Position numbers and translations under genes: made by a program. 13,208 bases of DNA from Candidatus Hydrothermarchaeum profundi (GTDB lineage: Archaea > Hydrothermarchaeota > Hydrothermarchaeia > Hydrothermarchaeales > Hydrothermarchaeaceae), in assembly GCA_002011125.2 (NCBI GenBank), contig MTMF02000011.1:1-13208 (forward strand), in the 5' to 3' direction. Shown piece by piece: positions 973-12,940 of this stretch (position 1 is the first letter of the stretch; each line of letters starts with the position of its first letter). The notes below the pieces were generated by a model. The model made no database searches and was not told where the DNA came from. It saw nothing but the letters and a program-made list of their open reading frames with translations.

Positions 973-2689
973 TATAACTCATTTTATTTTCTATATGTCC
1001 ACCTATTTCTTCGTAAACTTTTCTCTCCATCGTATACTCAATCGGAGCAACTATCGCAGGTGTTGGGACATAGGTTAAAGGATCTTTTCCCTTGATTTCT
1101 TCAACATTCACATAGAAGTTAATGCCCCCTCCTGGGAGTACAAAAGCTGGAGCTCCGCCAATAGTTAACTTTATTAGCCCTTTATGTACAGCTTCTGTAA
1201 CTTTTTTAGGAAACTTCGCCACTCCAGCTCTCGCACTACCACCTACCCCCCCGCAAAATAGCGCAGAAACTCCAGAATCTTCGCATGTATCAAATATCAT
1301 CTTGACCACTTTCTTGGCTTCTTCAGTAGGTTCTATTTCTTTTAACCTTTCTCCTCTCAACTCGAACATACTAAGGTGTTCTCCCGTTGTATCAGTTATT
1401 AAGACTCTCATGCCTTCCCAAGCGTAATTGAAGTCTATTTTTTTAATTGCGTCAAGTGGGTCCTTGATTGGTGTACCACCTATTCCGTCACCATGCTCAC
1501 CAAAGTAACGGCCGTCTGTACTCTTAACACCCCATGGGATTATACCCGAATATTTCATACCTAAGTACTTACCTGCATAGTGCTCTGAAAGGAGGCCAAT
1601 TATATGGGAGTCTAAAATTATTGCCTCATCAGCAACTTTCTTCAGATATGGTGCAAACATGCCTATAATCGCACTTCCACATCCTGCACGCATCTTTCTT
1701 ACCTTTTTCCCGTTAATTACTGGTTGTTTGCCAAGCTTAAATCTAATCCAGCTCTTTTTACCGATTTTTAATTCAACCTCTTTTCCATTCACAATGTCTA
1801 CTATTGTTCTTGCTGCTGTTAGTCCTGTTTTACTCTGCAGAATGTTTACCCCTCCAATATCTATCATTTTTGATCCATATTCTTCTGTCACAACTATCCC
1901 TACCTTTTTTCCGTCTCTGTATACAGTTTGACCTTCTGTTCCTATGAACTCATCAGTATCTATTTTTAGTTTCAAGTGGGAAAAGCTAAGAGGTGTTGCT
2001 GAAACAACTGTGACCACATCTACTCCTTCTACGTTACCTTCTACAATGATCGGGGCTGGTACAAAGTCGGGATATGTATTACCAGCCCCTACACCATAAA
2101 CTAGAGGTTCTCCGAATCTCTTCTGAGCTGGAACAGAGATTCTTCTGGATAGAACTAACCTCCCCCTCTCATTTTTATATCTTTTACAAGCCCCGTATTC
2201 TCCGTCTTTTATGGTACAAAAAACTGGACAACTCGTACATTTGATCCCTTTTGAGGGCAAAAATACGATGGCATTAAAGTTACACACTTTCTTGCAAGCT
2301 CCGCAATCAACGCATAACTTGGAGTTAACAAATGCCCTCTTTTTATCATCTGACTTTATGATATTTATAGCATTCTTTGGACACTCTTTAGCACATGAAC
2401 CGCATCCAGTACAATCATCCGTTATAAAGGCACTTCTGTTACCAATACCAATACTTGGCGCAGTAATGATTACATCGTCATTCTCAGCTAATTTGTAAGA
2501 TGCTAAGTTCCCCCGTATGGGTTGACTATTTACTAAAACCGTTATATTTCCTAACTTCTTTTTCAGCGAGTACTTTTCTTCGATAAAATTTAGTAACTCC
2601 CCTAACGTTCCACTTATGAGTTCGAACTCTTCCTTTGACTTCGTGGTGATACTCCTTACAGTAGTTAAATATCTCACACCAACCTTCAT
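935..2689 (-). CDS. hnr: 6-hydroxynicotinate reductase-like Fe-S flavoprotein with N-terminal MoaD/ThiS-like and 2x[4Fe-4S] ferredoxin domains
   Basis: Two ferredoxin motifs (CTGCGSCAKECP, CVDCGACKKVC), followed by Hnr-type motifs CTSCPVFCTIKDGEYGACKRY, GAGNTYPD, KLKIDTD, TEEYGSKM, MRAGCGSA, GGVGGSARAGV, PGGGINF and VPTPAIVAPIEYTM. Adjacent enamidase, DUF1185 and UPF0280 genes support the call. Confidence 0.85.
   Translation of the reverse strand: MKVGVRYLTTVRSITTKSKEEFELISGTLGELLNFIEEKYSLKKKLGNITVLVNSQPIRGNLASYKLAENDDVIITAPSIGIGNRSAFITDDCTGCGSCAKECPKNAINIIKSDDKKRAFVNSKLCVDCGACKKVCNFNAIVFLPSKGIKCTSCPVFCTIKDGEYGACKRYKNERGRLVLSRRISVPAQKRFGEPLVYGVGAGNTYPDFVPAPIIVEGNVEGVDVVTVVSATPLSFSHLKLKIDTDEFIGTEGQTVYRDGKKVGIVVTEEYGSKMIDIGGVNILQSKTGLTAARTIVDIVNGKEVELKIGKKSWIRFKLGKQPVINGKKVRKMRAGCGSAIIGMFAPYLKKVADEAIILDSHIIGLLSEHYAGKYLGMKYSGIIPWGVKSTDGRYFGEHGDGIGGTPIKDPLDAIKKIDFNYAWEGMRVLITDTTGEHLSMFELRGERLKEIEPTEEAKKVVKMIFDTCEDSGVSALFCGGVGGSARAGVAKFPKKVTEAVHKGLIKLTIGGAPAFVLPGGGINFYVNVEEIKGKDPLTYVPTPAIVAPIEYTMERKVYEEIGGHIENKMSYNEFIKKYEVELL
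2441..2689 (-). other. Ubiquitin-like beta-grasp (MoaD/ThiS/SAMP-like) domain fused in frame to Hnr, residues 1 to about 83
   Basis: MKVGVRY..VRSIT....EEFEL..GTLGELL..I.EKY....TVLVNSQPI......KLAENDDVIITAPSIGIG follows the MoaD/SAMP pattern (V.VR....R, T+.+L+..+, +LVNG, L.+.D.+.+.PP+.GG). The terminal Gly-Gly is replaced by GIG and there is no stop codon. Confidence 0.7.
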
Positions 2690-2740
2690 ATTTATCTTAA
2701 ATTTTTCTTTATATTTCTCTTATTGGTTGATATTCTGCAT

Positions 2741-3043
2741 TTATCTCATCTTACTTAGAGTATTCGTTAAGCGCAACATCTGGTTCAACAACCTGTATTT
2801 ACCTCCCCTAGACACGAACTCGAACTGTTTACCGACTCCTTGGTAGGGTTGTACCCTTCTTTTTAATCCGTGTTTCACAAGGAACATTCTTTCCAAATTA
2901 ATTATCTGCCAATACATCGCCAGATCTTTCCTTAGACGCTGCACCCTCAATCCTAAGTTTTGAAATGAAATCTGCTGTGGCCTCATACTTTTATTCCTGC
3001 TAGGTTCTAATCCTACAATTACGTGTTTAAAGTTCTCAAGCAT
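2741..3043 (-). pseudogene. Doubtful 100-aa hypothetical ORF, possibly a decayed gene remnant
   Basis: The ATG overlaps the upstream stop (TAATG), which suggests coupling, but the protein is very basic and has no recognisable motif. Other minus frames carry protein-like stretches broken by stops (KYEATADFISKLRIEG...LADN*FGKNVPCETRI). Confidence 0.3.
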
Positions 3044-3639
3044 TACCTAAGCCCATCTATCCCCTTTATTTCCTCCTTCTTCAACCCACCAACTCTGGGG
3101 TGAGGTCTACCACCGTTAGTCACCGCTACTGCAATTACGAGTTCGTCATCTCTTGGTGCATCGCTGATCGAAATGGTTACAGCATCAAAGTGTGATCTAA
3201 CGAAGGCTGCATCTTTGTAATGCAACGGTATATCCAGTGGTGTACCCATACAGCCATATTTCTTACTCGAAGGAATTATCGCCTTCCCTCCTCCAACTAC
3301 TTCCCGCATTGGCGCGCCAATCTTTGGGTGTAAAATTGCTGCTACATGTTCAAGCTCCCCCTTAGCACCTGCTATTCCTCCTTTACCGTAACTTTCAACA
3401 TTATCTTCAAGAATTTCAACTGCTCTTTCTGTCAAGATCTTTCCGAGTACTTCTCCCCACTCTATAAGCTTAGAGAGATCCTCTACATATTCGCCAGCGT
3501 AAGGGTTTTTTATAACAGCTGCACAAACGACTTTCTTAATCGGCCTTTCGACAGCTTTCCCCCCATCCATAAAAATTTCTTCGGAGTAAGTAACAATTTT
3601 CCTTATTTCCATACCTTTTAAATCCACTTCTATGCTCAT
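3043..3639 (-). CDS. DUF1185 ('amino acid synthesis' family) protein
   Basis: Motifs IRKIVT..EEI, AAVIKNPYAGEYVEDL, VESYGKGGI.G..GELEH.AA, GKAIIPS, DIPLHYKDAAFVRSHFD, DAPRDDE and GGRPHPRVGGL. Start moved from 3648 to ATG 3639, which follows the RBS GGGGTG. Confidence 0.9.
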   Translation of the reverse strand: MSIEVDLKGMEIRKIVTYSEEIFMDGGKAVERPIKKVVCAAVIKNPYAGEYVEDLSKLIEWGEVLGKILTERAVEILEDNVESYGKGGIAGAKGELEHVAAILHPKIGAPMREVVGGGKAIIPSSKKYGCMGTPLDIPLHYKDAAFVRSHFDAVTISISDAPRDDELVIAVAVTNGGRPHPRVGGLKKEEIKGIDGLR

Positions 3640-3652
3640 TTTGCACACCCCC

Positions 3653-5119
3653 TTAACCTCTTTTACCTAGCCACCTAGATACCACTACTTTTTTATCGGT
3701 GTAGAAATCAATTGCATCGTTTGCTCTACCCCTAGTTGAACCGTAAAATGATGTCTTTCTCCCTCCTACCGGGTAAAACGCGATTGGAGCTGGGGTTCCC
3801 ACGTTTATGCCAATTTGCCCAGTATTAACCATTCTCACGAAATCTCTTGCGTACTTTCCACATTCCGTATAGATTACTGCAGTATGACCGTATTTACTTT
3901 GGTTTATTATTGAAATCGCTTCTTCGAAGTTTTTAACACTCTTAACACACCTTATGGGTCCAAATACCTCTTCATCAAACACTTTCATTCCTGGCTCAGC
4001 TTCAAATACAGTAGGGGCTAAAAAGTACCCTTTCGGATATTTTTCGACCTTGTATTTTCTCCCATCAAGTATCAATTTTGCTCCCTCTTTGATAGCTAGG
4101 TCAATCTCGTTTAGAAGTCTTTTTAAAGCTTCTTTCGTCACTACTGGCCCCATTGTAACATCTTTATCCATACCATAACCTAGTTTGATTTCCTTTACCT
4201 GTTTTAGGAACTTGTCTATGAATTCGTCATATATTTCTTCGATTACTAGAATGTTAGATATTGCAAAACATCTCTCGCTTACATGGCCAAAACAAGAATT
4301 TACAAGGTTTTGCATAATACCATCCAGATTTGTATCTTCCATAACTAAGGCATGGTTATTCGCACCTCCTTGGCACTGAGCCCTTTTGCCGTGGGATGTT
4401 GCAAGTTTATAAACTTCTTCGGCAGCCCTCGAAGAACCCACAAAAGTAACACCCACAACATCTTTGTTCGTAACTAAAGCCCTTCCAACCTCTGCACCTC
4501 CGTGAACGACATTTATAACGCCTTTAGGATAACCTACTTCGTGGCATAATCCTATAATTTCATTTGTTGTCATGGGACAAATCTCACTCGGTTTAATTAT
4601 CACTGTATTCCCAGCTGCTACCGCCCATCCAAAGTAGAGTGGTATCATTGCTGGAAAGTTAAAAGGTGGAAGTATAATGAAAGGTCCTAATGGTTCGCGA
4701 ATGTAGTACTCGTCAACTCCTCTACCCACATCTTCTGAAAAACTCCCTTTAAGGAGTTCTGTAATTGCACAGGCGTGCTCGACGTATTGTATTCCTCTCA
4801 TCAATTCCTGCATAGCTTCTTCGAACGTCTTACCATGCTCGTTAACTATTATTTCAGCGAGCCTCTCTTTGTTCTCTTCTAATTTATATTTTAGCTCGAA
4901 CAAGTATTCCGCCCTGACTGGCGGAGGAGTTTGCCTCCATTCCCAAAAAGCCTCTTTAGCGCTTTTAACAGCCTCATTTACTTCCTCATTGGTAGACATT
5001 GGACATAGAGCTATTACTTCGTCAAAAGCTGGATTAGTTACCTCTATGTACTCACAGCTTTTAGATTCTATAAATCTTCCTCCTATATAATTCTTCAATT
5101 TTACTACTATTTCAATCAC
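3653..5119 (-). CDS. CoA-acylating aldehyde dehydrogenase, methylmalonate-semialdehyde dehydrogenase (MmsA/IolA)-like
   Basis: Motifs PFNFPAMIP, KPSE, FVGSS, GKRAQCQGGANNH, catalytic Cys in SERCFA, EEVFGP, and GQIGINVGTPAPIAFYPVGGRKTSFYG. The start is uncertain (TTG 5137, GTG 5119, or possibly ATA 5110). Confidence 0.85.
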   Translation of the reverse strand: MIEIVVKLKNYIGGRFIESKSCEYIEVTNPAFDEVIALCPMSTNEEVNEAVKSAKEAFWEWRQTPPPVRAEYLFELKYKLEENKERLAEIIVNEHGKTFEEAMQELMRGIQYVEHACAITELLKGSFSEDVGRGVDEYYIREPLGPFIILPPFNFPAMIPLYFGWAVAAGNTVIIKPSEICPMTTNEIIGLCHEVGYPKGVINVVHGGAEVGRALVTNKDVVGVTFVGSSRAAEEVYKLATSHGKRAQCQGGANNHALVMEDTNLDGIMQNLVNSCFGHVSERCFAISNILVIEEIYDEFIDKFLKQVKEIKLGYGMDKDVTMGPVVTKEALKRLLNEIDLAIKEGAKLILDGRKYKVEKYPKGYFLAPTVFEAEPGMKVFDEEVFGPIRCVKSVKNFEEAISIINQSKYGHTAVIYTECGKYARDFVRMVNTGQIGINVGTPAPIAFYPVGGRKTSFYGSTRGRANDAIDFYTDKKVVVSRWLGKRG

Positions 5120-6281
5120 CCCCTTTTGTAATTTCAATCATTCTATATGGTGGAGGTGTATACTTGCTTTTTACAACCTTAATGTCACCATTAATTAAAA
5201 CAGCAGAAATTCCTGGCACATCTCCATTCTTTAAAGCTTCAAGCGCAGTATCTCCAACACCTCCCATGGGCACATCTGCAAAAACCAAGTCTGCCTCCTT
5301 TCCAGTTTCTATAACGCCCGTATTCAAACCATAAACTCTCGCAGTGTTTCCAGTAGCTAGCGAAATTGCCTTTTCTGGTTCAAGTTCGCAAATAGATGAG
5401 ATGAAGGCCAGCAATCTAAGGACGGCTAAAGGTATAATTCCCGTCCCAGAAGGAGAATCCGTTCCTAGAACCACCCTTTCGAGAGCATTTTTATTTCTTA
5501 TGTATTTCAATATTTCTTGTAAAGCTTTCAGATTTCCACAATAGACAAATTCTAAGATTATATCAGTTTCGTCCACTATTCTGAATGCATCTTCCAGCGG
5601 CATGGCAGTCGGACCACCATTGATGTGTCCCACTATGTCAGGGTGAATTGCAATTACTTCCTCTGCACCTATGGTTGTACTTTCTGGAATTGAAGTGCCG
5701 CCAGTGTGCATTTTTACTTTCATGCCGTACTTCCTAGCGAGTTGAACAAGTGGTTTAACATCTTCAGGTTTGTACGCGCTACCTAGTCCGATTTCTCCTA
5801 CCAGCCACACACCATGATGGGCCAGTTCCTTGAAATCATCTTCCGTCATTCCCTTTTCTAGAATAACTGCACCGGCGTGAACCTTTACACCACTTGGTCT
5901 CATGTTGTCAAAACTTTTCCTTGCAAGTATCGCTAGTGCTTTGGCACCCACAATATCTCTGGGCCTTCCAGGCATATGTGGTTCGCCAGCAGAAATCATT
6001 GTTGTTACCCCACCATGAAGATAACCTGAAATCCACCCTATGGTATTTTGCCTTGGTGTATAGTCTCCGAAAACGGGATGAACGTGTGCATCTATAAGCC
6101 CTGGGAACACGGTATTGCCATTTGCATCTATCACTACATCGAAATTTTTATCGCCCAACTCATTTTCAAATCCAATAAATGCTATTTTACCATTATCCAA
6201 AACCAAGCAGTCTCCTTCTAAGATTGGTTCCTCCAACTTTCCAGACACTATCACGCCAATATTTCGAATTTTTACTTCCAT
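5112..6281 (-). CDS. ena: Enamidase (amidohydrolase superfamily, binuclear metal)
   Basis: PGLIDAHVHPVFGDYTPRQ, LHGGVTTMISAGEPHMPGRP, VKVHAGA, GEIGLG, MHTGGTSIP, GHINGGPTA and GTDSPSGTG are enamidase-type motifs. Start moved to ATG 6281 (MEVKIRNIG), preceded by RBS GGTGA, giving 389 aa. Confidence 0.9.
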   Translation of the reverse strand: MEVKIRNIGVIVSGKLEEPILEGDCLVLDNGKIAFIGFENELGDKNFDVVIDANGNTVFPGLIDAHVHPVFGDYTPRQNTIGWISGYLHGGVTTMISAGEPHMPGRPRDIVGAKALAILARKSFDNMRPSGVKVHAGAVILEKGMTEDDFKELAHHGVWLVGEIGLGSAYKPEDVKPLVQLARKYGMKVKMHTGGTSIPESTTIGAEEVIAIHPDIVGHINGGPTAMPLEDAFRIVDETDIILEFVYCGNLKALQEILKYIRNKNALERVVLGTDSPSGTGIIPLAVLRLLAFISSICELEPEKAISLATGNTARVYGLNTGVIETGKEADLVFADVPMGGVGDTALEALKNGDVPGISAVLINGDIKVVKSKYTPPPYRMIEITKGGD

Positions 6282-6293
6282 TAATCTCACCGT

Positions 6294-6310
6294 AAATCGA
6301 TTAGCGTTTA
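6294..6310. promoter_or_regulatory. Candidate operator, copy 1 (imperfect palindrome)
   Basis: Minus strand TAAACGCT-A-ATCGATTT lies between the TATA box and the RBS of ena, with 3 mismatches to TAAACGAT-W-ATCGTTTA. Confidence 0.55.
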
Positions 6311-6313
6311 TCA

Positions 6314-6327
6314 ATATAAAATTTTCG
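6314..6327 (-). promoter_or_regulatory. Archaeal BRE + TATA box for the ena operon
   Basis: The minus strand reads CGAAAA-TTTTATAT about 33 nt upstream of ATG 6281. Confidence 0.7.
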
Positions 6328-6369
6328 AAACTAAGAGCTTTCATAACAATAACTAAAAATAGTAGATGT

Positions 6370-6388
6370 GTCACTCAATATTAGTGAC
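6370..6388. repeat. Near-perfect palindrome GTCACTcAATATTAGTGAC
   Basis: It is an 18-bp palindrome (GTCACTAATATTAGTGAC) with one extra C, at the 3' edge of the IS6 fragment. Confidence 0.6.
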
Positions 6389-6389
6389 C

Positions 6390-6627
6390 TCCAGCTCAGA
6401 GTCGAACGAACTGTTAAATGGAAACCTGTTATGAAATCTCCTAGTTCTGTCTTTAAGCTGGGAAAACAGGCTTTCAATGGAGTTTCTTCTTCCAAACGTT
6501 TCGTGTTAATACTTTAAGCCAACCTCCTCAAAACCCAGAGACACCAGAATCCTTTATCAACCACCACTTCCGGCTTGTTCTCGCAGCATCTCAGCACTTC
6601 TTTGAGGAAAACGTAGGCGTGGAAGTT
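6390..6627 (-). mobile_element. Degraded IS6-family transposase, C-terminal fragment
   Basis: Manual translation gives NFHAYVFLKEVLRCCENKPEVVVDKGFWCLWVLRRL, a frameshift, then [40 protein letters not shown]. This matches the archaeal IS6 DDE C-terminal pattern (vVDxGxW ... RNxxE). Confidence 0.85.
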
Positions 6628-6681
6628 TGGTTTGTTATCAGAACCTCAAATAAACGGCATATCGCTAGTTCCCTAGAGACA

Positions 6682-6697
6682 CCAAAAAATTCATATA
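6682..6697 (+). promoter_or_regulatory. Putative BRE + TATA box for the ABC transporter operon
   Basis: CCAAAAAA-TTCATATA lies about 35 nt upstream of ATG 6733, and RBS GGTGG precedes the ATG. Confidence 0.55.
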
Positions 6698-6703
6698 GTG
6701 TGT

Positions 6704-6720
6704 TAACAATTAATCGTTTA
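6704..6720. promoter_or_regulatory. Candidate operator, copy 2
   Basis: TAACAATT-A-ATCGTTTA has a perfect right half-site and a degenerate left half. It lies between the TATA box and the RBS. Confidence 0.5.
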
Positions 6721-6732
6721 GTGGTGGTTGAG

Positions 6733-8004
6733 ATGGGAGGGTTTACGCGAAGAGATTTTATAAAAAGAACTATGGCTATTGGTATAGGCTCTACTCTTTT
6801 TGGTACAACCTTAATGGGTTGTGCAGGAGAGAAACCTGAAGAGAAGAAAGAACCTATTAAAGTGGGGCATTTAGCCGATTTAACAGGCGGCTTAGCCATT
6901 TACGGTTACTCACACGATAAAACACTGAACGCTGCTGTTAGAAGAATAAACGCTGAAGGTGGAATAGGGGGAAGGCCGGTAGAGATATACACAGAAGATA
7001 CAGAATCCAACGTTTCAACCGCAACGACAAGAATGAGAAAACTTATCGAATACTACAAGGTGGATTTTATAATTGGTTCTAATCATTCAGGAATTAATAT
7101 AGCGTGCAATCCAATTGCGAAGGAATTAAAGACAATTTTCTGGCCAACATCTGGGGCCATTAGTATAACCGGTGACCAAGGAAATCGCTACGTTTTCAGA
7201 ATGTGTAGTAATGTTAGAAGTGAGATAAAAGGTGCTGCGAACTGGGCAGTTGAGAACCTTGGAAGAAAGTGGGCCACAATTGTAGTAAACTATGCTTGGG
7301 GATGGTCCAATGAAGACGAATTCAAGAAAAGAGTTTCGGAAGCTGGTGGTAAGATAGTTAAATCTATAAGGGCACCCATGGGGACTAAGGATTTCATACC
7401 CTATGTAAACCAAATACCGGAGGATGTGGATGCGGTTTTCATTGCCTTCTTCAGCACTGATCTACTTTCACTTCTAAAAGATCTTTATGTATTAAGACCA
7501 AACATACAAAAGATGGTTGCATTGTATGGACTAAGCGGAATAGATACAACAAAACTTGGTGAGATGGTTGAGGATGTTACTATAATAAGTACCTTCCCAA
7601 GAAGACTTGAAGGGTTCGATACGCCGTACACGAGAGAATTTAGAAAAGCTATCGGTGTAGATCCTAAAGGTAGGGAAGTAGGAAACCCTTCAATGATATA
7701 CGCACTGCCATACGACTGGGCAGTCTGGGAAGCAATGTTTGCGATGAAAAAAGCTATTGAAGAATCTGGATGGTCAGGCAAGGAAGATAACCCGGATTTA
7801 ATCAAAACCCTTGAAGGGATTGAATTCAAAGAGAGCATAGAATTCCCACAGGGTGATGTAACTATTAGAGCGCAAGACCATCAGGCATTCATGCAACTCT
7901 TTATCGAAGGAGTTAAAAATGGCAAGTTAAAAGTCTTGGCAAGAATTCCTGCTGAAGAAACAATATATCCTTATGAGGTAGATTTCACTCAGGAGGCTTT
8001 TTGA
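6733..8004 (+). CDS. ABC transporter substrate-binding lipoprotein, LivK/Peripla_BP_6 type, Tat-exported
   Basis: Start moved to ATG 6733. It has a twin-arginine motif TRRDFIK, an h-region and lipobox LMGC, then PIKVGHLADLTGGLA, INAEGGIGGRPVE.Y.EDTES, YAWG and IRAQDHQA. Confidence 0.92.
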   Translation: MGGFTRRDFIKRTMAIGIGSTLFGTTLMGCAGEKPEEKKEPIKVGHLADLTGGLAIYGYSHDKTLNAAVRRINAEGGIGGRPVEIYTEDTESNVSTATTRMRKLIEYYKVDFIIGSNHSGINIACNPIAKELKTIFWPTSGAISITGDQGNRYVFRMCSNVRSEIKGAANWAVENLGRKWATIVVNYAWGWSNEDEFKKRVSEAGGKIVKSIRAPMGTKDFIPYVNQIPEDVDAVFIAFFSTDLLSLLKDLYVLRPNIQKMVALYGLSGIDTTKLGEMVEDVTIISTFPRRLEGFDTPYTREFRKAIGVDPKGREVGNPSMIYALPYDWAVWEAMFAMKKAIEESGWSGKEDNPDLIKTLEGIEFKESIEFPQGDVTIRAQDHQAFMQLFIEGVKNGKLKVLARIPAEETIYPYEVDFTQEAF

Positions 8005-8029
8005 ATTTTTTAAAAGGTTCAGGAGGTCT

Positions 8030-8902
8030 ATGGTGCCAATTGAACCCACAATTGTTAATAAAATTATCCTAGCCATTTTGAATGGAGTTGTATGGGCGCT
8101 CATCATAGCACTGGTAGCTCTGGGACTTACCCTCATCTTTGGTCTTATGGATATAGTAAACATAGCCCATGGAGACTTCTACATGCTTGGAGCTGTATTA
8201 GCATGGTACGGAGTTGCTTTGTTCAATAATTTCTGGCTTGGTGCGGTAATGGCAATGATATTTACAGCGATACTTGGAGCTGTGGTAGAGCGTAGTATAA
8301 TAAGACCCGTTGAGGGGCTACCAGCATTTACAGTTGTAGTCACCATAGGCCTTTCATACATCATCCAACAATCCGTTTTGGCTACCTTTGGTGGTTCTCC
8401 TCAAACCGTGCCCGAACCTATCCGTTTAACCATAGAATTCTTAGGTATAAGATATCCTGCCTACAGATTGTTTGTAGCAGGAGTTTCAGGGTTGGCCCTT
8501 ATCGCTTTAGGAGTTTTCCTTTTTAAAACACCCTATGGACTTTGGATTAGGGCCTCTATGCAAGATAAAGAAATAGCAAGCGCAATGGGCATTAACGTTA
8601 GCAATGTTTACATCATGACATTTAGCTTGGGTGCTATGCTTTCAGCACTGGGTGGTGCTCTCGCAGCCCCTATAACACAAGTTTTTTACCTAATGGGACT
8701 AGACGTGCTTGCTATTTCATTTATTATCGTTATAATAGGTGGTCTTGGTAGCTTGAAAGGGACACTGATTGCAGCTTTCATCATCTCTCTCTTGGAGAAC
8801 TTCATAACCCTTGTAGCCACACCAACGGAAGCAAGAGTCATATCATTGCTTATAATGGGAGCAGTACTTCTGATACGGCCGAAAGGGCTTTTTAGCACAT
8901 AA
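8030..8902 (+). CDS. livH: LIV-type ABC transporter permease, LivH-like
   Basis: Hydrophobic, with motifs ALGLTLIFGLMDIVNIAHGDFYMLGA, KTPYGLWIRA, A.AMGINV and IIGGLGSL.G. RBS AGGAGG. Confidence 0.92.
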   Translation: MVPIEPTIVNKIILAILNGVVWALIIALVALGLTLIFGLMDIVNIAHGDFYMLGAVLAWYGVALFNNFWLGAVMAMIFTAILGAVVERSIIRPVEGLPAFTVVVTIGLSYIIQQSVLATFGGSPQTVPEPIRLTIEFLGIRYPAYRLFVAGVSGLALIALGVFLFKTPYGLWIRASMQDKEIASAMGINVSNVYIMTFSLGAMLSALGGALAAPITQVFYLMGLDVLAISFIIVIIGGLGSLKGTLIAAFIISLLENFITLVATPTEARVISLLIMGAVLLIRPKGLFST

Positions 8903-8905
8903 GGG

Positions 8906-9883
8906 GTGATAATCATTTCAAACAGTAAGATTAAAAATTTTAATATCATGAAAAACAGGCTCATATTGTATGTGTTGGTATTGGTAATATTGTTCTCGTT
9001 GGGTTTTACTCTTCCTACAGATATGCGATCCTTATCCATTGATATTTTTATTTTCGCCATTTATGCAATGGCCTATGACATACTTTATGGTTATACCGGC
9101 CAGTTTAGCTATGGCCAAGCCGTGTTTTTTGGGGTTGCAGCATACGGCCTTCTATTACCAGTACTTCATACTAATACAAATCTCTGGGTTTCATTAACAA
9201 TAGCATTGGTAATAACAGTTGTGTTTGGAATAGTGTTGGGCTTTTTAGCAGTTAGGCTTGGTGGGGCGTATTTTGTAATAATTACAATTATCTTCAATCT
9301 CACATTTTACTTAATAGCTCTCGATTGGATTTGGCTTACAGGTGGAGATGATGGGCTAACGTTTAGAGCTCCAAAAATAGAGTTTGGCGTGTTTAGTCTT
9401 TCGCTATATGATCCAGTTGTCACCTATTATTTCATGCTATCCTTTTTACTGGCAAGTTACCTAATTTTAAAAAGGCTGATATCATCTCCAATTGGTAAAG
9501 TACTGATAGCAATCAGAGAAAACGAGGAGCGAGCGCAATTAATCGGTTATAACGTTTTTCGATATAAACTTCTAGCATACGTTGTCTCAGCATTATTCAC
9601 TGGCTTAAGCGGTGCGCTTTATTCTCTAAGGACCCGCTACGCCTCTGCTGATTACTTTAACATAGCTTTATCGGTCCAACCTATAATATGGACCTTAGTA
9701 GGTGGCGCAGGAACTCTGACAGGACCAATAGTTGGTGTTATACTCATAAATCCCCTAATCTACTACATAGGTGTATGGTGGAAACACTACCTATCAATTA
9801 TAGGAGCACTCATGATTTTTGTTGTGATATACTCTCCCAAAGGGATTGTAGGCAATCTCATAAATAAAATAGAAAAAAGTTAG
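8906..9883 (+). CDS. livM: LIV-type ABC transporter permease, LivM-like
   Basis: Motifs GYTGQFSYGQAVFFG, GAYFVIITI, LTGGDDG, SPIGKVLIAIRENEERA..IGYN and VGGAGTLTGPIVG. The start is uncertain (GTG 8906 or ATG 8948). Confidence 0.92.
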   Translation: MIIISNSKIKNFNIMKNRLILYVLVLVILFSLGFTLPTDMRSLSIDIFIFAIYAMAYDILYGYTGQFSYGQAVFFGVAAYGLLLPVLHTNTNLWVSLTIALVITVVFGIVLGFLAVRLGGAYFVIITIIFNLTFYLIALDWIWLTGGDDGLTFRAPKIEFGVFSLSLYDPVVTYYFMLSFLLASYLILKRLISSPIGKVLIAIRENEERAQLIGYNVFRYKLLAYVVSALFTGLSGALYSLRTRYASADYFNIALSVQPIIWTLVGGAGTLTGPIVGVILINPLIYYIGVWWKHYLSIIGALMIFVVIYSPKGIVGNLINKIEKS

Positions 9884-9900
9884 AACAGGGAGGATAATGA

Positions 9901-10659
9901 ATGAAAGACTCAGAAAAAAGTATCATAATTGAAACACATGAGTTAACAAAGAGTTTTGGAGGATTAGTCGCTTTAAACAATGTAAATCTTAGAATTCCAA
10001 AAGGTGAACTCAGAGCCATCATTGGACCTAACGGAGCCGGGAAATCCACCTTGCTGAATACAATAACTGGACGTCTTACTCCAACCTCAGGAGAGATATA
10101 CTTTCTGGGTGAAAAAATAACTGGACTTCCACCACATGAAATAGCAAGGCGAGGAATAGCGCTGTCACTCCAAATAGTACAAGTATTTCCGAATTTGTCT
10201 GTTTTCGATAATATCTGGTTAGGAGTTAAAATGAGATTTAAGACGAGGAACCCGTTTATTCATTGGAGACAATTAAAGGTAATTGAGGAGAAGGTTATCG
10301 AGATATGCAAGAAGATCGGACTTGAAAATAAAATTGATGAAATAGCTTCTAACCTTTCTCATGGTGATCAGAGGCTTCTAGATATAGCAATAGCTTTAAG
10401 CACCAATCCGAAATTACTTCTCCTAGATGAACCCCTCGCAGGTCTAAGTGTTAAAGAAAGAAGGCATGTGAGTAACTTGATCAAGGAATTATCCCAAGAA
10501 AAAACTATTATCTTGATAGAACACGATATAGACGCAGTTATGCGATTAGCAGATAGAATAACAGTTCTAGATAGAGGTAGGGTAATTGCAGAAGGTACAC
10601 CTCGTGAGATAAGTGAAGATCGGCAAGTTCAGGAAGTTTATATAGGAAGTAGAGAATGA
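9901..10659 (+). CDS. livG: LIV-type ABC transporter ATPase, LivG-like
   Basis: KSFGGLVAL, Walker A GPNGAGKS, signature LSHGDQR, Walker B LLLLDEP, H-loop IEHD and C-terminal VQEVYIG. Confidence 0.95.
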   Translation: MKDSEKSIIIETHELTKSFGGLVALNNVNLRIPKGELRAIIGPNGAGKSTLLNTITGRLTPTSGEIYFLGEKITGLPPHEIARRGIALSLQIVQVFPNLSVFDNIWLGVKMRFKTRNPFIHWRQLKVIEEKVIEICKKIGLENKIDEIASNLSHGDQRLLDIAIALSTNPKLLLLDEPLAGLSVKERRHVSNLIKELSQEKTIILIEHDIDAVMRLADRITVLDRGRVIAEGTPREISEDRQVQEVYIGSRE

Positions 10660-10671
10660 TGAGGTGTTAAC

Positions 10672-11388
10672 ATGTTAAGAGTTGAAGATGTGGATGTGTT
10701 TTACGGTAAGAGTCATATATTGCACGGAATCGAAATGGATATCCAGCATGGCCAAATTGTGGCACTTTTGGGCAGAAATGGTGTAGGCAAGACGACTACT
10801 ATAAAGACTATAATAGGGATCCTAAAACCAAAAAAGGGGAGAATAATATTTGAAGGTCAAGAAATCTCCAAAATACCTACTCACGAGATAGCTAGAATAG
10901 GAATAAGTTACGTTCCACAGGGTCGAAGATTATTTAATAAATTAACAGTTCTTGAAAATATTATTATAGGACTTACAGTAAAAAAAGAATTAAGAAATAA
11001 TGAGTCTTATCAAGATAAAATAAAAAAAGTTTTAGAAATCTTTCCGCAATTGGAAAGTCTACTAAATAGGCCAGTAGAAACTCTAAGTGGAGGTGAACAA
11101 CAAATGGTCGCTATAGCTAGAGCATTGGTAACGAATCCCAAGTTGTTGCTAATGGATGAACCTAGCGAGGGTTTAATGCCTGTACTTGTACAAAAGTTAG
11201 GTGACACAATAAAATTAATTAATCAAATGGGTGTCACAATTCTCCTTACAGAACAAAACGTATCCATGGCTCTAAAAATTGCTGACAAAGTATATATAAT
11301 GGATAACGGTGAGATAAGATTTAAAGGAAACCCTACTAGGCTTTTGAAGGACGAAGATCTGCTTTTAAAATATCTAGGCGTAAGATGA
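10672..11388 (+). CDS. livF: LIV-type ABC transporter ATPase, LivF-like
   Basis: Walker A GRNGVGKT, YVPQGRRLF, LSGGEQQM, Walker B LLLMDEPSEGL, EQN and C-terminal YLG. RBS GAGGTG. Confidence 0.95.
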   Translation: MLRVEDVDVFYGKSHILHGIEMDIQHGQIVALLGRNGVGKTTTIKTIIGILKPKKGRIIFEGQEISKIPTHEIARIGISYVPQGRRLFNKLTVLENIIIGLTVKKELRNNESYQDKIKKVLEIFPQLESLLNRPVETLSGGEQQMVAIARALVTNPKLLLMDEPSEGLMPVLVQKLGDTIKLINQMGVTILLTEQNVSMALKIADKVYIMDNGEIRFKGNPTRLLKDEDLLLKYLGVR

Positions 11389-11395
11389 AATTACC

Positions 11396-11683
11396 ATGCT
11401 AAAAAATAAAAGGAAATTGTAAAGGAACCAAAAGTCTTTGAAAGAAACAAAGTACTTCCAGAAATCAAAATACTTGGCATAACAATGTACATCCAAACAT
11501 CCTCGGTAAGAAGAAGTGCCAGAATTCTGTCAGAGCTTCATCCAATCTCTAAAACATCAGTATGGAACTGGATAAAGAAGTTCAAAGAAAGTTGCCAATT
11601 ACAGCGGAGAGAAAACCAAGGAACCAGATAACAGATAAAACGGTTGTTGAAGCGGGAAAAAGAAGTATTACATCTATACGATA
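11396..11683 (+). mobile_element. Degraded IS6-family transposase, N-terminal (HTH) fragment
   Basis: Manual translation across several frameshifts gives ML.. / KEIVKEPKVFERNKVLPEIKILGITMYIQTSSVRRSARILSELHPISKTSVWNWIKKFKE / KLPITAERKPRNQITDKTVVEAG / KYYIYT. This is the archaeal IS6 HTH plus a decayed IDET motif. Confidence 0.8.
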
Positions 11684-11689
11684 AGATCT

Positions 11690-11960
11690 GTTTATAAGTT
11701 TGCAGTTCTGAATGTCCTTTTGATTGGGATTGTTGTAGCTACTATGGCATAACAATAAAATGAAGAGGAAGATGGGGAAATAAGCAAGCATATGAAGAAT
11801 AAATGGATGAAGTGGAGTGCTAAAGGAGCTGAGAATTTTGGCACTCTGCAGATGAAGATGAAGTGTGAGGAAGATATTTATGAATCGTTCGTTGAAATTA
11901 TGAAGCTAGATGGGAATATAAGATGAGAAGTGAATTTAAACTCATGATAGAACACGACCC
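11690..11960 (+). mobile_element. Degraded ISH6-like transposase, C-terminal fragment
   Basis: LWHNNKMKRKMG, a frameshift, then EISKHMKNKWMKWSAKGAENFGTLQMKMKCEEDIYESF. This resembles the ISH6-family C-terminal motif W..N..ER.MGE+sKR.K..WM+W. Boundaries are approximate. Confidence 0.65.
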
Positions 11961-11966
11961 AATTGT

Positions 11967-12923
11967 TTACAATTCCTCAAGCAATTCATAGTCAATTACA
12001 TCAACCATTAATTCCAGTTCAACGTTTATTCCTTGTTCTTTTAGTATTAGTAAGGGCGTCGAAGAAGCTACGATAGTTATACCTAATTGATCACTATTTA
12101 CTGGAAGTCCAAGAACTTCTTGATTGGGCTTACCTATTTTCAAAAATCCGTTTATCTTGCATTTCTTCAATTTAGCGGAGATATCAATAACCTCTTGGTA
12201 ACAAATACCTGGGATAACTCTGAATGTTGCTGGACACTCCCCACAACCATTAGTGAGAATGCTTAATGCTGAAAAAGACTTAGCACGAAAGAGGTCTACT
12301 GATGTAATAGAGGATGTCTCATACCCTACCATATCTATAAATCTAACAGGTTCACCATGTTTAAATTCGACCACTCCACCATATCTTAAATGTACGTTAA
12401 TTCCTCTTCTTAATAAAACACCATCAACTGCTATTCCATTTATGTAATACATCCCAACTTCATCCTCAGATAGTAGTTCACCGTCCTCTATGACTTTAAC
12501 TAAAGGAGATATAGCTAATTTTCGTTTATAGCATTCTTTAAATATATCAATTACTTCATCTAAATAATCTTTTTTAAACTTGCAGAAATTTACAAGTATC
12601 TTTCCTTTCTTTGTTTCTGGATTAAAATTAGACATGAACATGTATTCTTCCTTTCTAGTTAACAATGTACTGACTCTAGCCATAACATTTGCTCTTTCAA
12701 GTTCAGATAAACCTTTTTGAGTAATTTTTCTACCCAAATTCTTTACTTTAAAGACATACCCTCGTTCCTCAAGTATCCTCAGATGATACCTAATTGCAGC
12801 TTCGCTTAGTTCGATGCCAACTTCTTTCAGTTTTTCAGAAAGTTTTTTGGATCCCATTGGATCTCTTTCGTCTCTCAGTATTGAGAGAATAGTATGTCTA
12901 ATTTCTTCGTTAGATAACAACAT
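11967..12923 (-). CDS. NrpR-family transcriptional regulator (N-terminal winged HTH + single NRD/DUF128 domain)
   Basis: wHTH ILSILRD...PMGSKKLSEKL...GIELSEAAIRYHLRILEERG...GRKITQKGLSEL, followed by NRD-like FNPETKKGKILVN, VDGVLLRRGI...RYGGVVE...GEPVRFIDMVGYETSS, ATFRVIP and GKPNQEVLGLPV. At 318 aa it has a one-NRD (NrpRI-like) architecture. Confidence 0.88.
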   Translation of the reverse strand: MLLSNEEIRHTILSILRDERDPMGSKKLSEKLKEVGIELSEAAIRYHLRILEERGYVFKVKNLGRKITQKGLSELERANVMARVSTLLTRKEEYMFMSNFNPETKKGKILVNFCKFKKDYLDEVIDIFKECYKRKLAISPLVKVIEDGELLSEDEVGMYYINGIAVDGVLLRRGINVHLRYGGVVEFKHGEPVRFIDMVGYETSSITSVDLFRAKSFSALSILTNGCGECPATFRVIPGICYQEVIDISAKLKKCKINGFLKIGKPNQEVLGLPVNSDQLGITIVASSTPLLILKEQGINVELELMVDVIDYELLEEL

Positions 12924-12940
12924 TAAACGATTTTCGTCTA
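12924..12940. promoter_or_regulatory. Candidate operator, copy 3 (autoregulatory site)
   Basis: Minus strand TAGACGAA-A-ATCGTTTA directly abuts the regulator ATG, with 2 mismatches to the palindromic consensus. Confidence 0.6.

Follow-up and report, generated by a model that had tools for sequence, protein, structure and literature searches.

A clade of methylmalonate-semialdehyde dehydrogenase-like enzymes linked to reductive nicotinate catabolism, with a candidate 2-formylglutarate dehydrogenase in an archaeon

We analysed a 13,208-base window of Candidatus Hydrothermarchaeum profundi DNA, which is the whole of contig C11 in a 2.19 Mb genome assembly (19 contigs, 97.65% complete). On its minus strand, at 3653-5137, the window carries a gene for a CoA-acylating aldehyde dehydrogenase (ALDH) resembling methylmalonate-semialdehyde dehydrogenase (MMSDH), directly downstream of an enamidase gene. 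A preliminary description, made from the letters of the sequence, had proposed that this enzyme turns 2-formylglutarate into glutaryl-CoA, CO2 and NADH. Comparative genomics backs the proposal by gene linkage, by the clade to which the enzyme belongs, by its active site and by the near-exclusion of the B12-dependent route. The enzyme belongs to a distinct ALDH6/MMSDH clade that was probably recruited into reductive nicotinate (6-hydroxynicotinate) catabolism. We put the probability that it converts 2-formylglutarate to glutaryl-CoA, as a predicted decarboxylating, CoA-acylating 2-formylglutarate dehydrogenase, at roughly two in three; that it acts downstream of enamidase can be predicted with more confidence.

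The dehydrogenase and its family

The dehydrogenase gene is one intact open frame of 494 codons counted from TTG 5137; a plus-strand reading of the same interval was rejected for its many stops, the preliminary description having given no strand. Translation probably begins at GTG 5119 and yields 488 amino acids, as in the protein on record (P0002). The enamidase gene (5112-6374, minus strand) probably starts at ATG 6281 and encodes 389 amino acids. GTG 5119 lies upstream of the enamidase stop codon (5112-5114), so that the dehydrogenase frame overlaps it, and the next gene, encoding a DUF1185 protein, follows after only 4 nucleotides. Because of the start/stop overlap and this short gap the enamidase, dehydrogenase and DUF1185 genes look co-translated.

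The protein matched Pfam Aldedh with an E value of 1.7e-128. The score against TIGR01722, the model of CoA-acylating methylmalonate-semialdehyde dehydrogenase, was 484.4 bits (cut-off 448.5), and the next NCBIfam model scored 344.7 against a cut-off of 750; TIGR01722 was the only one above its cut-off among the best 25 of 44 models. The best solved relatives were MMSDHs: 5TJR (E 3.7e-122), 1T90 (E 1.2e-116) and human ALDH6A1 (about 1e-112). The preliminary description of an MmsA-like dehydrogenase placed directly after enamidase was thus correct, the enzyme being a full-length member of the family (TIGR01722, cd07085) whose start overlaps the enamidase stop.

By these scores the gene could encode a conventional (methyl)malonate-semialdehyde dehydrogenase that serves valine, beta-alanine or inositol metabolism and is located beside the enamidase gene by chance. 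The homologues are named MMSDH or 'aldehyde dehydrogenase family protein' in their sources, and the enzyme is the sole ALDH of the host genome, both of which would suit this explanation. The distribution of the neighbouring genes and the pattern of conserved residues, described in the next two sections, make it very improbable.

Linkage of the clade to nicotinate genes

Twenty-four close homologues were aligned, and a scan of one genome per species yielded 80 loci, taken with flanks of up to 10 kb on each side. Neighbouring genes were identified by tblastn with the window's own proteins and with the Ndh subunits of locus L004. A maximum-likelihood tree was built from 80 rows, namely the window and 79 loci, with the fragment L074 excluded. 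In it the dehydrogenase fell into a clade of 32 rows with a Shimodaira-Hasegawa-like approximate likelihood ratio (SH-aLRT) support of 100. Members of the clade come from Thermodesulfobacteriota, Chloroflexota, Acidobacteriota, Bacillota and Actinomycetota. Relatives outside the clade had 41-50% identity to the query in the best segment.

The gene counts refer to 32 clade loci, that is, to the 31 loci of the tree and L074. At least one nicotinate-pathway gene was present in 29 of them: enamidase in 26, DUF1185 in 21, NdhL in 21, NdhS in 19, NdhF in 17, Hnr (6-hydroxynicotinate reductase) in 11 and UPF0280 in six. The three loci that had no pathway gene extend just 2, 297 and 1,214 bases downstream. 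None of the 48 loci outside the clade carried enamidase, Hnr, DUF1185 or UPF0280; generic molybdenum (Mo)-hydroxylase genes were found in two.

An independent scan of metagenome contigs with a single-protein query gave 80 loci with 59-89% identity. A pathway gene was present in 68, including all 28 in which both flanks were at least 3 kb long, and eight of the 12 unlinked loci had at most 305 bases of downstream sequence. The commonest gene order was dehydrogenase, NdhS, NdhF, NdhL, enamidase, Hnr, UPF0280, DUF1185. Some clusters had in addition an isochorismatase-family gene, which we take to be a possible nicotinamidase. The Actinomycetota loci L019-L030 contain genes for a luciferase-like monooxygenase (eight clade loci), an isochorismatase-family protein (about 11) and a MarR regulator (about seven), which this lineage may have added to its nicotinate clusters.

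Chance proximity of an ordinary MMSDH is hard to reconcile with linkage in 29/32 clade loci and 68/80 metagenome loci from at least six phyla and with its absence from 48/48 non-clade loci, nor would it explain thirteen clade-specific invariant residues.

Active site and clade-specific residues

In the excerpt of PMC12041015, ALDH6 enzymes are described as keeping Cys284 and Asn153 (1T90 numbering), and Arg107 and Arg283 as binding the carboxylate of the substrate and releasing bicarbonate. The same excerpt notes that the hydrolytic Glu is missing (Leu250 in 1T90), and blames this loss for the failure to hydrolyse the thioester. In an alignment to 1T90 the counterparts in the archaeal dehydrogenase are Cys290, Asn160, Arg114, Arg289 and, at the Glu site, Gln256. 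Asn160, Cys290, Arg114 and Arg289 are each conserved in 32/32 clade rows and in 48/48 outside rows, and Cys290 and Asn160 are also invariant in the alignment of the 24 close homologues. At the Glu site every clade row (32/32) and every one of the nearest homologues (121/121) has Gln256.

These residues bear on a CoA-independent oxidation of 2-formylglutarate, which would yield free glutarate (and CO2) or 2-carboxyglutarate. Such a reaction would agree with the lack of a glutaryl-CoA dehydrogenase in the host genome, and the closest solved relative, KES23460 (5TJR), uses malonate semialdehyde with or without CoA according to the excerpt of PMC4907197. The same excerpt gives a rate about tenfold higher with CoA, and with the hydrolytic Glu absent and replaced by Gln256 throughout the homologues we consider CoA-independent oxidation distinctly improbable.

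The catalytic loop FGHVSERCFA (residues 283-292; 4262-4291, minus strand) and the segment GANNH (residues 258-262; 4352-4366, minus strand), in which Asn260 stands in place of the usual Lys, are both present as the preliminary description had reported. The loop that it quoted as usual was approximately right: the solved MMSDHs have YGSCGERCMA or FGSAGERCMA, and GAKNH. Arg289 and Cys290 of the loop are invariant in the family. Phe291 is clade-wide and was found in 121/121 nearest homologues, whereas His285 and Ser287 characterize only part of the clade: His285 occurs in 91/121 nearest homologues, 11/32 species-level clade rows and 0/48 outside rows, and Ser287 in 66/121, 22/32 and 0/48, respectively. 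Asn260 was shared by just 6/121 nearest homologues, and a relative with 87% identity has GAKNH. The idea that enamidase-linked copies form their own clade marked by the His/Ser substitutions was therefore borne out as far as the clade (SH-aLRT 100) and the enrichment of His and Ser in it are concerned, but the two residues are not universal. GANNH is idiosyncratic and does not mark the group. We rejected His/Ser with GANNH as a universal signature of the clade.

At thirteen positions the residue never varies within the clade and is rarely seen elsewhere: Tyr118, Tyr168, Trp171, His262, Phe291, Asn295, Arg396, His418, Gln441, Thr448, Val457, Arg469 and Arg471. At the ten positions compared with the solved enzymes (118, 168, 291, 295, 396, 418, 441, 448, 457 and 469/471), 5TJR and 1T90 show either the residue typical of the outside rows or some other one that is not that of the clade; His262 is common to the clade and the solved MMSDHs (GAKNH). 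Residues 118, 168 and 291 presumably correspond to substrate-tunnel positions of ALDH2. Arg396, Arg469, Arg471 and His418 would suit a substrate with a second carboxylate.

The B12-dependent branch and the dehydrogenase are nearly exclusive

In Eubacterium barkeri 2-formylglutarate is consumed by a B12-dependent branch. Of 401 Bacillota genomes searched with enamidase 22 matched, at 28 places; at 21 of these the identity was 51-59% and the gene lay beside Hnr and related genes. Twelve of the 21 loci had at least one gene of the E. barkeri branch and no clade dehydrogenase, and the clade dehydrogenase was present in two. The branch genes seen were a 3-hydroxyisobutyrate-dehydrogenase-like Hgd, a serine-dehydratase-like Hmd, a B12-binding mutase, a PrpF-type Mii, an aconitase-type Dmd and an ICL/PEP-mutase-type Dml.

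Queries with Hgd, Hmd, Mgm, Mii, Dmd and Dml found matches in just two of 112 clade loci, an Hgd-like gene (40%) in L018 and an unrelated partial aconitase-like fragment in L098. None of the six queries matched the window. In the host genome nothing matched Hmd, Mgm, Mii or Dml at E 1e-10, and the matches present were a generic Hgd-like one (34%) and two of the aconitase family. By gene neighbourhood the two ways of consuming 2-formylglutarate are nearly exclusive, as predicted by a bypass of the B12-dependent branch. The preliminary description had suggested such a bypass and noted that the window has none of the branch genes; the wider sample supports it. Taken together, the linkage of the clade, the retained catalytic set and the near absence of B12-branch genes fit the reaction 2-formylglutarate to glutaryl-CoA + CO2 + NADH.

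The same net products would be formed if the enzyme were a CoA-acylating glutarate-semialdehyde dehydrogenase and CO2 were lost beforehand, spontaneously or by the action of another protein of the cluster; gene context therefore cannot separate this alternative from the decarboxylating dehydrogenase. The Azorhizobium pathway, in the 1992 work of Kitts, reportedly proceeds in this order, decarboxylation and then oxidation. The words 'via glutarate' in the excerpt of PMC3511419 point the same way, and MMSDHs also turn propionaldehyde into propionyl-CoA (excerpt of PMC12041015). Against prior decarboxylation, the two arginines to which the beta-carboxylate binds in MMSDH are kept throughout the clade. 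The obvious candidate for a separate decarboxylase, DUF1185, is present in E. barkeri-type clusters as well (17/21 enamidase loci of Bacillota, those that have Hgd and the B12 mutase among them). Since 2-formylglutarate must stay intact in B12-type clusters, a role of DUF1185 as 2-formylglutarate decarboxylase is made unlikely. All in all we regard the glutarate-semialdehyde route as rather unlikely.

DUF1185 and UPF0280 accompany Hnr and enamidase whether the cluster is proteobacterial, of the Bacillota B12 type or of the MMSDH type, and they probably serve the Hnr/enamidase steps, not the downstream branch.

Observations against the proposed reaction

Several points weigh against conversion of 2-formylglutarate to glutaryl-CoA by this enzyme. 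We infer the substrate, the product and the fate of glutaryl-CoA, and assume that the substrate taken up by the host is 6-hydroxynicotinate. The tree was the result of a 'quick' search with SH-aLRT support only, and the 48 outside rows, drawn through peptide patterns of the clade alignment, are a biased sample of MMSDHs. Two loci of the same arrangement (L004 and L128) contain the dehydrogenase, NdhS, NdhF, NdhL and DUF1185, but neither enamidase nor Hnr is present in the 10 kb to each side; that lineage must have its enamidase elsewhere. A clade dehydrogenase and an Hmd-like gene occur together in L230 (Bacillota). In L018 (Actinomycetota) the Hgd-like gene, a member of the 3-hydroxyisobutyrate-dehydrogenase family (11544-12401), directly follows the clade dehydrogenase; among the clade loci such a neighbour was seen in L018 alone.

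In the host genome no PF00441 acyl-CoA dehydrogenase was found, whereas the control search matched 9/14 named genomes. No PF02738 Mo-hydroxylase was found either, in an assembly that is 97.65% complete and in which the contig stops 69 nucleotides past the stop codon of the UPF0280-like gene. The preliminary description had set down in advance that a genome with no glutaryl-CoA catabolism would refute its proposal, and this is the situation in the host unless the acyl-CoA synthetase route considered below is real.

Fate of glutaryl-CoA in the archaeon

The five bacterial genomes with the cluster had 7-20 acyl-CoA dehydrogenase matches each. Having none, the host can be expected neither to oxidize glutaryl-CoA nor to run a lower benzoyl-CoA pathway, and the earlier suggestion that glutaryl-CoA feeds that pathway has to be given up: a search of the genome for glutaryl-CoA dehydrogenase returned 0 PF00441 matches. 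The genome has one ADP-forming acyl-CoA synthetase with adjoining genes for its alpha (448 amino acids) and beta (209 amino acids) parts on contig C9, near 1.506-1.508 Mb, and also a succinyl-CoA synthetase. Archaeal enzymes of the ADP-forming type are reported to accept dicarboxylyl-CoAs. Conversion of glutaryl-CoA to glutarate with formation of ATP would be the simplest fate in this host, and a pathway that makes glutarate and ATP out of imported 6-hydroxynicotinate has more probability than the lower benzoyl-CoA pathway.

Lacking a Mo-hydroxylase, the host could not let nicotinate itself into the pathway, and entry is presumably at 6-hydroxynicotinate through the ATP-binding cassette (ABC) system encoded in the window, although Ndh may have been lost at the assembly gap past the UPF0280-like gene. 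The 6-hydroxynicotinate brought in would be reduced by Hnr to 1,4,5,6-tetrahydro-6-oxonicotinate, which enamidase would hydrolyse to 2-formylglutarate and ammonia. The dehydrogenase would then oxidize the aldehyde on Cys290 with NAD(P)+, the 2-carboxylate, held by Arg114 and Arg289, would be lost as CO2 or bicarbonate, and the acyl group would pass to CoA to give glutaryl-CoA, a transfer expected because Gln256 replaces the hydrolytic Glu. The last step, from glutaryl-CoA to glutarate with ATP, would most likely be carried out by the single ADP-forming acyl-CoA synthetase. The predicted yield in the archaeon would be ammonia, NADH and one ATP. In principle the electrons balance: Hnr uses two and the dehydrogenase gives NADH.

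The host genome is archaeal, as its main contig carries ribosomal protein S3Ae. McrA was not found in it. The gene of one DsrA scored above the curated cut-off and had a DsrB-like gene adjoining, which fits the 'anaerobic respirer' of the preliminary description. There are two DsrAB-like pairs (C9:741986-744147 and C9:126293-128411), and only the first DsrA passes the cut-off. One of the three aldehyde:ferredoxin oxidoreductase (AOR)-family genes of the genome (C9:1055903-1056922) has an in-frame TGA, for which a selenocysteine codon, a frameshift or a pseudogene is possible.

Origin of the cluster

A true enamidase was found in none of 60 sampled relatives (three from its family, 31 from its order, three from its class and 23 other archaea), where the best match had E 5.5e-7 and the proteins matched were generic amidohydrolases. 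The tetranucleotide correlation of the contig with the main contig was 0.929, within the range of same-size pieces of the main contig (0.855-0.987), and the values for bacterial loci were 0.33 and -0.17. A mis-binned contig is not supported by this value. Since the sampled relatives lack enamidase, yet the tetranucleotides fit the genome, the cluster looks horizontally acquired and settled.

An 89%-identical relative, L098, lies on a 16-kb metagenome contig with Hnr, UPF0280, enamidase, dehydrogenase, DUF1185 and NrpR genes. A polyferredoxin gene and an AOR-family gene precede Hnr there (991-3285), a gene for a Pyr_redox_2 (pyridine-nucleotide-disulphide-family) flavoprotein follows DUF1185 (11689-12927), and the cluster also has a sodium:solute symporter. 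None of these additional genes has a close copy in the host genome. The AOR, the ferredoxin and the flavoprotein may supply electrons to Hnr or form a second aldehyde route.

The archaeal cluster could also serve a different N-heterocycle, with the dehydrogenase acting on a different 2-formyl acid. In its favour, no Mo-hydroxylase was found in the genome and no enamidase in the 60 sampled relatives, and L098 has AOR, ferredoxin, symporter and flavoprotein genes in place of Ndh and the ABC system. Against it, the enamidase matches that of E. barkeri (2VUN) with an E value of 1.2e-136 over residues 35-414, near full length, and the Hnr-like protein has 41-53% identity to bacterial Hnr. Moreover, bacterial members of the clade adjoin Ndh subunits and sometimes the nicotinamidase-like isochorismatase. 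We judge a different heterocycle improbable, and 6-hydroxynicotinate remains the predicted substrate of the cluster.

On a broader view, which we put forward tentatively and at less than even odds, the clade may represent a third branch of reductive nicotinate catabolism that does without B12 and is widespread, with occurrences in Thermodesulfobacteriota, Chloroflexota, Acidobacteriota, Bacillota and Actinomycetota. The sulfite-reducing archaeon would have got a cut-down version of it by horizontal transfer, leading from 6-hydroxynicotinate to glutarate, CO2 and ammonia with one ATP made by the ADP-forming acyl-CoA synthetase, possibly under the control of NrpR.

Other genes of the window

The order on the minus strand is enamidase, dehydrogenase, DUF1185, a spacer of 353 nucleotides (2690-3042), the Hnr-like gene and the UPF0280-like gene. 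Hnr and enamidase occur together in the window with their companions UPF0280, DUF1185 and the ABC importer. The DUF1185 gene (3043-3648) belongs to the 'amino acid synthesis' family (PF06684), whose solved members 2QTP and 3BYQ are described solely as 'uncharacterized protein'. An open frame of 100 codons in the spacer (orf100, 2741-3043) matches no Pfam family, has relatives at none of the loci, and was set aside as probably no gene.

The Hnr-like gene (935-2689) encodes, from N- to C-terminus, a ThiS/MoaD-like domain, a 2x[4Fe-4S] ferredoxin domain and an Hnr domain. Residues 149-580 have 41-43% identity to annotated 6-hydroxynicotinate reductases on alphaproteobacterial plasmids. The extra beta-grasp domain of the ThiS/MoaD type (PF02597, E 9.8e-5; 2420-2689), located before the ferredoxin domain of the archaeal Hnr, is present in L098 too, whereas the proteobacterial matches are confined to residues 149-580. 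The UPF0280-like protein (70-972), conserved beside Hnr, gave no Pfam match even at E 5, and its sole match in the PDB is a 'hypothetical protein'. A role as ApbE-like flavin transferase for Hnr is backed by no search result.

Upstream of enamidase and divergent from it, the plus strand has the five genes of an ABC importer (6619-11388), namely a binding protein (6619-8004), two permeases (8030-8902 and 8906-9883) and two ATPases (9901-10659 and 10672-11388). In type the importer agrees with the putative nicotinate ABC transporter found in proteobacterial clusters (excerpt of PMC3511419). The likely start of the binding protein is a Met at about 6733, after which come an RR motif and a signal-like stretch that contains a Cys. 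About 450 nucleotides (6282-6732) thus separate the likely starts of enamidase (6281) and the binding protein. An Rfam search of the whole window, this gap included, gave no match at E 0.1.

A gene for an NrpR-type nitrogen regulator (11967-12923, minus strand) is found at the far end of the window and also beside the cluster of L098. The spacer upstream of Hnr contains a single exact copy of the palindrome GGAA-N6-TTCC (2881-2894), which we take to be the NrpR operator consensus. The genome has 43 exact copies, 0.26 would be expected per 13.2 kb, and the window has one. In L098 the one copy falls within a gene, and if a mismatch is allowed the count does not exceed that in shuffled sequences. 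A possible NrpR operator at 2881-2894 is thus weakly suggested.

Significance and comparison with known systems

A full-text literature search revealed no MMSDH tied to 2-formylglutarate or to a nicotinate cluster, although Alhapel 2006, Kitts 1992 and Talfournier 2011 lay outside its reach. Apart from the E. barkeri B12 route, the literature searched assigns no gene to the conversion of 2-formylglutarate into glutarate or into glutaryl-CoA. The named candidate enzyme, with its clear clade signature (RCF, Tyr118, Tyr168, Arg396, His418, Arg469, Arg471), makes this step testable. If the prediction is true, 'methylmalonate-semialdehyde dehydrogenase' labels in anaerobes and Actinomycetota are open to re-annotation, and the breakdown of the pyridine ring joins the glutaryl-CoA hub of bacterial anaerobic aromatic metabolism. 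The archaeon would then obtain nitrogen and ATP through a pathway borrowed from bacteria, and within the literature searched no earlier proposal of a nicotinate-type catabolic pathway in an archaeon was found.

The published route of Azorhizobium caulinodans is said to involve free glutarate and a CoA transferase. In the excerpt of PMC3511419 the conserved nicotinate cluster comprises genes for the pathway's three initial steps, an ABC transporter and two conserved unknowns. On one of the alphaproteobacterial plasmids the cluster has the order Mo-hydroxylase subunits, Hnr, UPF0280, DUF1185, a hypothetical protein and five ABC genes. Hnr, UPF0280, DUF1185 and the five-gene ABC system form a core that the Azorhizobium/proteobacterial cluster (excerpt of PMC3511419) shares with the archaeal window, and the end product likewise belongs to the glutarate/glutaryl-CoA family. 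In the one proteobacterial locus examined (L002, 25 kb) there was no MMSDH-like gene, and the window differs in lacking Ndh. The likeness to an Azorhizobium glutaryl-CoA route that the preliminary description had pointed out thus extends to the core genes and to a related end product; the route itself passes via free glutarate in the excerpt of PMC3511419.

The nicotinate fermentation of E. barkeri employs Ndh, Hnr, Ena, Hgd, Hmd, the B12-dependent 2-methyleneglutarate mutase, Mii, Dmd and Dml. Its Hnr and enamidase are clear homologues of those in the window, and Bacillota clusters of this type also have DUF1185 and UPF0280. In contrast, the genes from Hgd to Dml are missing from the window, where the dehydrogenase is predicted to replace Hgd as the consumer of 2-formylglutarate.

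The archaeal enzyme is like the ALDH6 MMSDHs (B. subtilis IolA/MSDH, 1T90; Pseudomonas KES23460, 5TJR; human ALDH6A1) in fold, family and catalytic residues, and the predicted chemistry, consisting of oxidation, beta-decarboxylation and transfer to CoA, is also alike. It differs from them in belonging to a separate clade (SH-aLRT 100), which has Phe instead of Met/Leu after the catalytic Cys, Tyr for Asn118 and Tyr for Trp168, new residues at Arg396, Arg469, Arg471 and His418, and a location in nicotinate clusters, not in valine, beta-alanine or inositol operons. In the predicted substrate a carboxyethyl group takes the place of the methyl of methylmalonate semialdehyde. By these comparisons the clade is a new functional variation inside a known enzyme family, and most likely provides a glutaryl-CoA-forming, B12-independent route.

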